From: a virus
Taxonomy: Duplodnaviria > Heunggongvirae > Uroviricota > Caudoviricetes
Virus record (IMG/VR): IMGVR_UViG_2529293069_000017
Strand: one strand, 5' to 3'
DNA length: 5,542 nucleotides
This document shows, in pieces, positions 1 through 3,000 of the stretch. Position 1 is the first letter of the stretch, and each line of letters opens with the position of its first letter. Made by a program: the position numbers.

Positions 1-3000
1 AAAACCTCATTCAGTAATTCATATCAGTTTGCAGGATGTTTCATTAAATAAAATAAAGGGTAATGTTCATTTCAATTACCCTTTATAACGAAGTTTCCTC
101 TGGTATCGTCATAAATGCATTCTTCATGTTTTACAATTATTGATGCCGTTATTGGTTCCCGGGTCAGTGGGTGGGGTAAGCCTTCACCAGTCAAACGAGA
201 AAATGCAGCGGCATCAAATAAAGTACATACATCTGAACCATCTGAATTCTTCACAAAAATACCTTTTTCAGGCTGCTCCAGTGTAATTGGACATTGAATA
301 GCCTCAAGCGGGCACTGAAGTCTCTCTGGACAAACAGAAAACTTACATTGAGATATTTTGTTCTGAATACTCTCTTGCGATTGTGCTTCACCTGAGTCCG
401 AAAGCATACTTAGCATTCTCTCACCAAGGGCTCGAGGACCACTATTAAATCCCAAAAGCAATAACTCAGAAAGCAATCCGCCATTACCGCCACTGGATGA
501 AAAGCGCCCATTAGTAGAATCATACACAATACTGACAGTTTCACCACCGACTGTAATATCTCCGCGCCCATTGGCTACAATTCGGGCACGAACAACCTCC
601 ACCCCAAGATTAAATGAATGTGATCTAATATCTGAGGTTAATGGCATAACAAAGCTCCCTATTTTAATTTGAACTCCAGACTTAAATAGCTGTAACAAAC
701 ATCCCCCATACGTGACAACAAAAACCAGAGCAGGACTCCGGTTTTTGTGAACCCGTCGGCTATTTCATCCCGCCAATATTTTCCCACCTCCCGTCAGCAC
801 GCAGAATTTGCAGCGGTCTTACCACGCACTGTATCTGCTTTTTATCCGCATCCAGTATCACCACCTGTGTGATTACCCTGTCCTGCTCCGGAATAATGCC
901 ATTCTCATCTGACTCCAGGATGTCTGCCGGCCCCAGTCGCAGTTGTACTGTAAGCGACTGCCCGTGTTCACAGTCATCATGCTTTCCGCAACCACACAGA
1001 CGCTCCATAAGCTTTCTCAAAATATTCATGTCATTCTCCTGTTCTGCCTGTATCACTGCCCACTTCATCCAGTCCCTTAACATCCTGCCACGGCCCGTCG
1101 CCAAACCTGACCTGCAAATGCCGAAACAGCCCCTGAACCTGTGTGGCATCTTTGGGGTCAAGAAAGGTCAGTCCGGTGATGAGTGCACCATCTGTATCCG
1201 GGAACCAGCCATGGCTGTTTGTCTCAATAATGCTCGCCGGCCCCAGACGAAAACGGATTTGTGTCTCCCCCGGGTCGCCCTTCGGTCCCTGAGGTCCGGT
1301 TGCCCCCACCGGGCCAGCCGCACCTGTTTCTCCTTTCGGTCCCTGTGGGCCTGCCGGGCCTGCTGCCCCGGTGTCTCCCTTTGGACCCTGTGGACCTGCA
1401 TTTCCCGTCAGACCGGTCTCTCCCCGCTCTCCCCTGTCACCTTTCGGCCCCTGCGGGCCTGCCGGACCAGCATCACCTGCCGGTCCCCGTTCGCCGGTTG
1501 CCCCGACAGGGCCGGTGTCACCGCGCTCTCCCTTATCACCCTTCGGCCCCTGAGGACCCGCGGGCCCCTGTTCCCCCTTTGGCCCGGGAGGTCCCACCAC
1601 GGTGGGGATTCGGTTTACGGCCTCTTCCGCCGCTATCCTGCTTTGTTCCGCTGACTGTGCGCTTTCTGCTGACTCCCGGGCTTTTTCTGTTGCGGTCGTT
1701 GCATCCCTGGCTGCATTACCGGCTGCACTTTCTGCCGTCTTTCTTGACAATTCAGCTTCTGCTGCACTTTGTGATGACTCACTGGCTTTTTGAGCGGCCG
1801 CAGAGGCCGAGGACGAGGACGCCTCCTCTGACTGCTTTGCAGCGGCTGCACTTTCTGCCGCCTGCCGGGCTGACTCCGATGCATCCCCTGCTGAAGTGTC
1901 AGCATTTGCAGCGCTCTCTTCTGCCTGACTGGCTGATATGCCGGCATTCCTCGCGGACGTCTCCGCCTCTCCGGCATTCTTCTTCGCCTCCTCAGCGTGA
2001 CGCGCCGCTTCTTCCACCATCAGTTCAAAACGACGCAGTGCCTCCGGCCGGACGTCATCCTCCGACATGGCACCGAGAAAATCATTCAGCGTACCCGGTT
2101 GAGAATCTTCATACACGGTGATGGTCCCGGCATGTGACGGCGGGAATCCTTCCACCAACAGAATGACGCTGTACTGACCGTACTCAACGTCCATGCTGTA
2201 ACGACCGGCTTCATCCGGATTTTCAGAGGCCACCGTGTTCACCACCACCGTGCTGCTGGTCCGTCTGGCTTTCAGTTGAATGGTGCAGTTCTCTACCGGT
2301 TTTCCTGTGCCGTCTTTCAGTACACCTGAAATCTTTACTGCCATATTCACCCCACAAAAAAGCCCGCCTGAACCGGCGGGCTGTCATAACACTGTGTTAC
2401 CTGAATCAGAACTTATAACCGACACCCACGATGAAACCGTCAGTGCGCCAGTCGCCACTGCCGGAGCCTTCATAAGCAATATCAATGGCCACGGATTCGG
2501 TCGGGTTAAACTGCACGCCAGCCCCCCACGCCAGAGACGTGTTGCTGTGGCGACCGTCATCACTTCCGGTCAGCACATCGTGCGTTTTCCCCTTGTTGTC
2601 AGTTACGCGGAGATAATCCCCGGAGAAAGTCGACACACGGCTGTAAGCCACTCCCGCCATCGCATACGCGCTGAACCATTCATTCACGCGCACAGACGGC
2701 CCCGCCATTACGCTGAACCAGCGGTTACGAACGGAATCTTCATGCCAGCGGGTATCGCTGTAATGGGTCAGCTGGCGATTCTTGTCTCCTGCATAGCTGA
2801 ACGACGTCACCATCCCCAGTGTGTCCGTAAACTCATAACGGTATTTCACGTTAATCCCGTTCAGTTCATCGCTGCCAGGAACGTTCGTCGAGACATGAAG
2901 ATACCCCGCGCTCAGCGTGGACTGATGTTCAGACGCCCATGCAGGCGCACCGGATACGGCCAGACAAATGGCTGCGGACAAAATGGCGGCATAAAGTTTA

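Follow-up and report, generated by a model that had tools for sequence, protein, structure and literature searches.

Which structure is encoded by positions 1262-1594 of IMG/VR virus record IMGVR_UViG_2529293069_000017 (Caudoviricetes), a run of glycine codons inside a tail fibre gene, and does its repetitive build make the fibre variable? These are the questions raised by the locus analysed here. All coordinates follow the numbering of the window, i.e. the whole 5,542-nt stretch of DNA, in which the fibre gene lies on the minus strand. Our answer to the first question, given with high confidence, is that 1262-1594 represents the collagen triple-helix part of the stalk of a side tail fibre of the EPclA type (enterohaemorrhagic Escherichia coli (EHEC) prophage collagen-like protein A), belonging to a lambdoid prophage of the Shiga toxin (Stx)/EHEC type. 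In the present analysis it is directly supported by the sequence anatomy, the domain homologies, the near-identity to a characterised protein, the range of length alleles and where their junctions fall, while published experiments provide the evidence for trimerisation, for triple helix and coiled coil, and for melting temperatures and dimensions. The functional readings hold, and the biology as such has been known since 2012.

The coding part of the gene (1034-2344, 437 aa) links an N-terminal phage_tail_N domain (PfN), an Ala/Ser/Glu-rich coiled coil (PCoil), the collagen-like tract (Col) and a C-terminal Phage_fiber_C domain (PfC). The Col part translates into 111 residues, which form 37 uninterrupted G-X-Y triplets, exactly as counted in the first-pass annotation. 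The run did not arise by chance, because G-X-Y runs in every other reading frame of the window comprise at most 6 triplets, 10,000 shuffles of the protein gave runs of up to 7, and the probability of 37 in-register Gly residues at the Gly frequency of the fibre protein is near 1e-32. The Pfam search with the fibre protein returned PfN, Collagen and PfC as well as a sub-threshold match to CarboxypepD_reg; the collagen family PF01391 scored 65.5 bits against a cut-off of 27.2, and collagen chains in the PDB were matched with E-values down to 1e-70. Pro occupies 48.6% of the X and 5.4% of the Y positions and charged residues make up 21.6% of Col, with seven KGD/KGE and three RGD/RGE charge pairs, hence the noted richness in Pro and charged residues was found as well. 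The motif scan also recovered the recurring modules, five copies of GPQGPKG(D/E) and one GPPGPKGE (Table 1), which are irregularly spaced and therefore do not form a tandem array. Two plus-strand open reading frames (ORFs; 869-1654 and 1261-2121) that lie opposite the Pfam-supported fibre gene were dismissed as by-products of the GC-rich coding of G-X-Y triplets; the GC content of the collagen tract is 71%.

The fibre protein, whose best PHROG match is PHROG 366 "tail fiber protein" (E=4e-152), is identical at 432 of 437 positions to the VT1-Sakai copy H0004, which was equated in this analysis with ECs2941; all five substitutions are situated outside Col, which is identical at 111 of 111 positions. 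Moreover, the cloning primers published for EPclA have perfect matches in the window at 2318-2344 and 1034-1060, and the protein has the PfN-PCoil-Col-PfC order, the single Col, the 437 aa and the more than 90% identity to the Sakai/EDL933 copies that define EPclA. The nearest complete genome, of O157 strain 493/89 (98.9% identity), is annotated with the identical gene order. EPclA (ECs2717, ECs2941 and paralogues) was described by Ghosh et al. (2012, PLoS One 7:e37872, PMC3368898) as a protein of 437 aa with a PCoil of 116 and a Col of 111 aa, encoded by several gene copies in each O157:H7 genome, its Col having a GP(Q/P)-GPK-G(D/E) pattern with ~48% Pro in X and ~22% charged residues. Produced recombinantly from the O157:H7 Sakai gene, the protein forms a trimer; both EPclA and the Col-PfC fragment showed a circular dichroism (CD) maximum at 220 nm and a minimum at 199 nm, and a sharp melt with a melting temperature (Tm) of 42 °C, which was reversible with immediate refolding (PMC3368898). 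The PCoil was characterised as trimeric coiled coil with a Tm of ~52 °C by CD and size-exclusion chromatography with multi-angle laser light scattering (SEC-MALLS), PfC and PCoil were recognised as trimerisation modules of which PfC lets Col refold quickly, and the electron microscopy (EM) of EPclA revealed a hinged dumbbell in which the collagen rod measures ~30 nm and the coiled coil ~16 nm (PMC3368898). Hence, the CD and thermal-melt check that had been proposed for this segment has in effect already been done on EPclA with positive outcome, and the predicted trimeric collagen-like stalk is well founded for a Col of identical sequence. Unlike published EPclA, the copy in the window has NleG effector genes and a J gene with a frameshift as neighbours.

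The segments flanking Col fit this assignment. PfC follows directly C-terminal of Col and a heptad-periodic segment directly precedes it, both of which were found to trimerise in EPclA. The latter segment contains 38 Ala, 23 Ser and 16 Glu among 117 residues, and the dominant Ala periodicity of residues 101-250 is 3.5 residues, therefore carrying the signature of a heptad coiled coil. Together with the published trimeric coiled coil, this agrees with the earlier view of the block before the collagen (here residues 134-250) as a coiled-coil spacer. The PCoil also occurs in in-frame length alleles: the homologues P0002, P0011 and P0027 have deletions of 41, 63 and 28 residues, the junctions of which fall in recurring AESAA/ARESA motifs. 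The generalisation made by Ghosh et al. (PMC3368898) does not hold for the 41-residue deletion, since 41 is not divisible by seven.

The assignment as side tail fibre was likewise correct, since residues 1-93 match residues 1-94 of gpStf from Ur-lambda (PDB 9E7M/9MGH; chain Ta of 9E7M) with E=2.1e-51 and the gene is located after J and lom. In the Ur-lambda structure, 12 N-terminal Stf copies from four trimeric fibres form a collar around the tail, and lambda Stf, which binds OmpC, resembles the tip of T4 gp37 in sequence and structure (PMC12617516). The collar domain and the position after J and lom are common to Ur-lambda Stf and the fibre gene studied here, but the similarity does not extend beyond gene nt 356 and stops long before the collagen, and lambda orf-401 correspondingly matches gene nt 1-356 only, with 85-92% nt identity. 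Where Stf-type genes have a gp37-like C-terminal region and a downstream Tfa, the present gene ends with PfC and is followed by an 89-aa ORF consisting of PfC only; hence, with homology restricted to the N-terminus, it is not a full Stf orthologue. Its rod is composed of coiled coil and collagen and its tip of PfC, unlike in lambda Stf. The latter uses the Tfa chaperone and, to our knowledge, has no collagen tract. A PDB sequence search with PfC and the 89-aa ORF gave no meaningful match, i.e. neither has a solved-structure relative detectable by sequence.

The collagen tract coincides with the boundaries at which related fibres differ. Fibres tipped by a peptidase-S74 domain share 93% with this protein from PfN through PCoil into the first Col triplets, and inside Col change over to another tail. 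The short-tailed phages of the 933W type behave reciprocally, matching from gene nt 771 (second Col triplet, near window position 1580) through PfC to the stop codon with 94-95% nt identity, whereas upstream of Col their DNA does not match this gene. In strain 493/89 the sequence equals that of the window up to the end of Col, and 10 sites differ in the PfC that follows. Hence, mosaic patterns are evident among the fibre-gene copies, and the crossovers to 933W-type and S74-tipped fibres within or at the edge of Col support the postulated hotspot for modular exchange. The 933W-type fibre, EPclB (933W L0121, Sp5 ORF67, ECs1228), is the tail fibre of short-tailed Stx2 phages; its gene is likewise followed by an 89-aa PfC-only ORF, immuno-EM placed the protein at the phage tail, it is essential for Sp5 infectivity, and BamA (YaeT) is its proposed receptor (PMC5155283). 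That collagen-like repeats act as recombination hotspots in phage fibres is an old idea that has been described elsewhere: the antireceptor genes of Streptococcus thermophilus phages and ORF8 of the Guarani virophage are known as recombination or deletion hotspots, and an 81-nt deletion in Guarani has been experimentally tied to host-range expansion. Those systems likewise show in-frame collagen deletions and repeats that border host-range modules, in other hosts and with unrelated flanking domains.

Regarding the second question, the first-pass annotation had noted several near-identical direct repeats in the DNA, prone to slippage or recombination. These repeats were not borne out at the nucleotide level. 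The repeat search identified four 56-nt copies with 61-80% identity, the longest exact direct repeat has 11 nt (four such repeats in the window), and the sole array reported by Tandem Repeats Finder consists of 2 copies of 45 nt with 80% identity. The six modules show a pairwise DNA identity of 76.8% compared to 77.8% expected when synonymous codons are permuted. Because the DNA identity is close to this null, the modules are kept as protein with randomised synonymous sites and are not recent duplications. The head-to-tail array of near-identical DNA units that defines a slippage-prone tandem-repeat (contingency-type) locus is thus missing here. A selection against DNA repeats was also considered and dropped, the synonymous resampling giving P(<=observed) of 0.16-0.27.

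The length of the tract does vary. Triplet numbers were counted in the 120 representatives returned by a search of a clustered protein database, among which proteins of the PfN...PfC architecture contained 45 distinct Col sequences with 4, 5, 8, 14-16, 19-21, 25, 26, 32 or 34-37 triplets. Close relatives in IMG/VR mostly have 37 triplets, with 38 found twice, 36 once and 27 three times; the homologues overall span 4 to 38 triplets with 37 being the commonest number among the loci sampled. Hence, triplet numbers are not identical across homologues, and the predicted variability in fibre length stands. Its strain-to-strain character stands in part only: the 15 best whole-window matches in E. coli span 5,544-5,547 bases and thus differ by 2 to 5 bases from the window, so the locus length is kept in the nearest relatives and the variation resides mainly between prophage copies and lineages. 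Among 5,426 complete E. coli genomes, the tract was located at 5,881 places in 718 of them (median 9, maximum 14 copies), therefore recombination partners are plentiful.

Nearly all short forms correspond to the 37-triplet sequence minus one block, the edges of which lie in a repeated module (GPQ-GPK, GPV-GAT or GAA). Junction homology of at least 6 residues was found in 9 of 17 observed deletion classes compared to 12 of 588 possible in-register internal deletions (2%; binomial P ~1e-11). This test over unique deletion products replaced one conditioned on deletion length, which gave weak P values and in which equivalent breakpoints within one repeat were counted as equally good. The DNA of eight short alleles leads to the same picture, each being derivable from one of 14 known 37-triplet alleles by removal of a single block, with 0-1 mismatch left. 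At their junctions, exact microhomology amounts to 17, 11, 11, 5, 5, 5, 2 and 2 nt, whereas among 2,711 possible deletions (multiples of 9 nt) at least 5 nt occur in 3.8% and at least 11 nt in 0.15% (P ~1e-7). Two of the four 11-nt exact repeats coincide with breakpoints: the 25-triplet allele (record L163), a deletion of 12 triplets, has its breakpoint within CCGGCAGGCCC and the 15-triplet allele (record L164) within GGGGCAACCGG. All short alleles are in frame with intact PfC. Judged from these alignments, the short alleles appear to have arisen recently from 37-triplet alleles by in-frame deletion in a single step, probably through slippage or relaxed homologous recombination between diverged modules; relaxed recombination is attributed to phage Rad52-like recombinases in the title of a published study (PMC3945230). 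The idea of repeat-driven recombination or slippage is thereby retained insofar as junctions fall in modules, and has to be modified insofar as these modules are diverged (~77% identical) and offer 2-17 nt of microhomology instead of near-identical repeats. The deletion positions were not analysed in the paper on EPclA.

Several points weigh against the interpretation as a whole. The structure and stability of this exact allele are carried over from a paralogue with 99% identity and are to that extent predicted. The J gene of the prophage is frameshifted, so this copy of the fibre may never enter its own virion. Regarding the deletions, two of the eight alleles have no more than 2 nt of exact microhomology at the junction, and selection on surviving deletions could add to the junction bias. 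Finally, the direction, deletion and not duplication, is deduced from the fit with 0-1 mismatch and the randomised synonymous sites between the modules.

Collectively, the data suggest the following working of the fibre. Three chains would assemble in parallel, and PfN would dock on the tail as a collar like in Ur-lambda Stf. The PfC trimer would set the chain register and nucleate the triple helix, giving a hinged rod made of a coiled coil of ~17 nm and a collagen triple helix of ~32 nm in the case of 37 triplets. The helix, free of hydroxyproline (Hyp), would owe its stability to Pro, which fills about half of the X positions, and to the K/R-G-D/E charge pairs. Docking, rod formation, PfC-guided folding and stability have been shown by homology and published experiment, while PfC probably carries the distal function in receptor binding and rod length may affect adsorption and phenotype. 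The GP(A)GPQGPKG modules would serve as short patches of diverged homology, at which in-frame deletions reduce the rod from 37 triplets to a number as low as 4 and at which crossovers join the stalk to other fibre heads or tips. A more far-reaching view, which we consider rather unlikely, is that the collagen tract represents an evolvable length ruler and crossover cassette, with the rod length being selected to match the thickness of O-antigen or capsule. Microhomology-guided recombination between modules, among up to 14 prophage copies per genome, would then generate discrete rods of ~3 to 33 nm and also swap fibre heads and tips. The junction statistics and mosaic boundaries were seen directly; the adaptive link of rod length to host range is putative.

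The best surviving alternative is that the tract is a passive spacer, its length polymorphism being a neutral by-product of recombination that affects neither adsorption nor host range. This is a real possibility, to which we give somewhat less than even weight. It is consistent with the intact PfN and PfC of fibres with 4, 8, 15, 19, 25-27 and 37 triplets in many assemblies, with the dispensability of the lambda side fibres for plaque formation (PMC12617516), and with the predominance of the 37-triplet form among the sampled loci. However, Col shows 122 synonymous versus 21 non-synonymous differences among close relatives. By this measure the peptide is under strong purifying selection, and its sequence matters, not merely the presence of a linker.

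A less probable alternative, though not a negligible one, is that the fibre gene of this prophage is an inert relic, kept only as recombination stock for the resident lambdoid prophages. It is based on the J gene (3072-5542, minus strand), which has an extra G at 4296 compared to strain 493/89 (CTGCGAATT versus CTGCAATT) and therefore reads as two overlapping ORFs (4216-5514 and 3072-4352) instead of one protein of 1158 aa. The J gene of VT1-Sakai is annotated as truncated, too, and the median of 9 tract copies per genome together with the mosaic patterns among them would suit a role as recombination stock. The frameshift may mean that J is a pseudogene of a defective prophage, or it may be a sequencing error, which is conceivable for a single-base difference; moreover, the fibre ORF is intact and under purifying selection. 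In any case, the relic hypothesis concerns the fate of this copy and not the nature of its collagen segment.

Much less credible is the assumption that the short-collagen alleles are assembly or sequencing artefacts due to collapsed repeats, for which assemblies were to be inspected according to the first-pass annotation. Several short alleles indeed stem from short-read draft contigs of 1.4-3.6 kb, but the longest exact repeat of 11 nt should be shorter than usual assembler word sizes, hence a collapse is not expected. Moreover, a 19-triplet allele resides in the complete 5.5-Mb chromosome CP018237, which also harbours a full-length copy, and each short allele is in frame with an intact PfC. 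Collagen-length variants are also listed by Ghosh et al., and the finished Sakai genome has copies with 81 residues, i.e. 27 triplets (PMC3368898).

The collagen-like proteins Scl1/Scl2 of Streptococcus pyogenes and BclA of Bacillus anthracis resemble the fibre in having a Hyp-free, charge-pair-stabilised helix, the folding of which is nucleated by an adjacent globular trimerisation domain. They are anchored on the cell surface or the exosporium, and in BclA the variation in repeat number changes the filament length. They differ in their X/Y preferences and in not being phage fibres, and in Scl2 the nucleating globular domain is N-terminal whereas PfC is C-terminal (PMC3368898). That the protein is a bacterial surface adhesin of this kind, serving the cell and not the phage, is the least plausible explanation, since despite the common Hyp-free, charge-rich collagen domain (BclA, PDB 1WCK, E=3.6e-8) and the role for the bacterium left open by Ghosh et al. 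(PMC3368898), the Pfam matches, which do not cover signal peptides, include no cell-surface anchoring domain, the N-terminus is homologous to the collar domain of lambda Stf, the gene is placed in the tail module after J and lom, and the related EPclB is a phage tail protein essential for infectivity (PMC5155283).

Table 1. Coordinates of the fibre gene, its segments and modules, the exact repeats and the neighbouring signals in the window.
Feature	Position	Strand	Residues	Basis and remarks
Side tail fibre gene, EPclA type	1031..2344	minus	437 codons	ORF list and translation; ATG at 2344, TGA stop 1031-1033
PfN (phage_tail_N)	1946..2344	minus	1-133	PF08400, 230.6 bits; attaches fibre to tail
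PCoil, Ala/Ser/Glu-rich trimeric coiled-coil spacer	1595..1945	minus	134-250	Composition, periodicity, published data
Col, 37 uninterrupted G-X-Y triplets	1262..1594	minus	251-361	Translation, Pfam, composition
Module 1, GPPGPKGE	1571..1594	minus	251-258	Motif scan and module DNA list
Module 2, GPQGPKGD	1535..1558	minus	263-270	Deletion junction in 8-, 14-, 19- and 26-triplet alleles
Module 3, GPQGPKGD	1436..1459	minus	296-303	Junction in 19-, 25- and 26-triplet alleles
Module 4, GPQGPKGD	1373..1396	minus	317-324	Junction in 19- and 26-triplet alleles
Module 5, GPQGPKGE	1328..1351	minus	332-339	Junction in 14- and 25-triplet alleles
Module 6, GPQGPKGD	1274..1297	minus	350-357	Junction in 4-, 8-, 19- and 26-triplet alleles
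PfC (Phage_fiber_C)	1067..1258	minus	363-426	PF06820, 123.6 bits; C-terminal trimerisation module
Microhomology CCGGCAGGCCC, 11 nt, copy 1	1455..1465	minus		Longest-exact-repeat search; copies 108 nt apart
Microhomology CCGGCAGGCCC, 11 nt, copy 2	1347..1357	minus		
Microhomology GGGGCAACCGG, 11 nt, copy 1	1494..1504	minus		Longest-exact-repeat search; copies 198 nt apart
Microhomology GGGGCAACCGG, 11 nt, copy 2	1296..1306	minus		
PfC-only gene	760..1029	minus	89 codons	Starts 1 nt after fibre stop; PF06820, 125.1 bits (residues 28-89); PHROG 576
Terminator-like hairpin after lom	2361-2382	minus		Terminator scan; 8-bp stem, 7 GC pairs, T run
TGTTATGAC motif	2383-2391	minus		Follows the hairpin after lom
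Second terminator-like hairpin, after J	3035-3054	minus		GC-rich, with T run

The gene order on the minus strand, given with Pfam domain positions, is J (3075-5541), Lom (2409-3005), the fibre gene, the 89-codon PfC-only gene (763-1029) and an NleG effector gene (75-647). The PfC of the 89-codon gene is 38% identical to that of the fibre itself and is preceded by a Cys/His-rich N-terminus (CGCGKHDDCEH). The gene was present downstream in every related locus examined, at the position of lambda tfa. Its Sp5 counterpart ORF68 is non-essential and has been suggested as a reservoir for fibre-tip variation (PMC5155283). One phage record names the PfC-only gene "alternate tail fiber tip", and in two database proteins of 494 aa the fibre is fused in frame to the PfC-only protein. 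Immediately downstream of the fibre genes lies the NleG-family type III effector gene (PF06416, E=5.9e-46). Strain 493/89 has three genes of this kind, annotated DUF1076, at the end of the prophage, of which this one is the first; a small "capsid protein" coding sequence and then uspF and ompN come next. Upstream, the motif TGTTATGAC is found 38 nt before the fibre ATG and abuts the hairpin after lom; at equal distance it was called "putative promoter" of ECs2717 (PMC3368898). Hairpin and motif are consensus matches only, the promoter is unproven, and a sigma-70 scan of 650-3100 returned no promoter-like site.

Among further records, the full-length fibre gene of four Stx2a-converting phages (H110-H112, H114) has 1,319 instead of 1,320 nt, which implies a 1-nt deletion, and these genes may be frameshifted. 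A scan of contigs matched the fibre only in fragments in Escherichia albertii; apart from the two contigs named next, the other hits were unrelated collagen-like genes from diverse bacteria. Contigs labelled Kitasatospora papulosa and Neobacillus notoginsengisoli (L082, L083) contain a lambda-type PfN fibre start with 75% identity, restricted to the N-terminus; a 401-aa protein in L083 agrees in length and ending with the protein of an IMG/VR contig (L066). These assemblies may be contaminated with enterobacterial or lambda DNA.

Fibres of the EPclA type are carried by lambdoid prophages that harbour Shiga toxin and type III effector genes in EHEC, therefore their build and variability bear on the range of strains that can be infected. 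Furthermore, EPclA is useful as a Hyp-free, thermostable bacterial collagen. To the work of 2012 the present analysis adds that the peptide modules are not recent DNA duplications, that the length alleles appear to be recent single-step deletions at these modules, and that the tract coincides with mosaic boundaries between fibre types. If the collagen tract were indeed to act as a length ruler, rod length would influence which strains Stx and other lambdoid phages reach.

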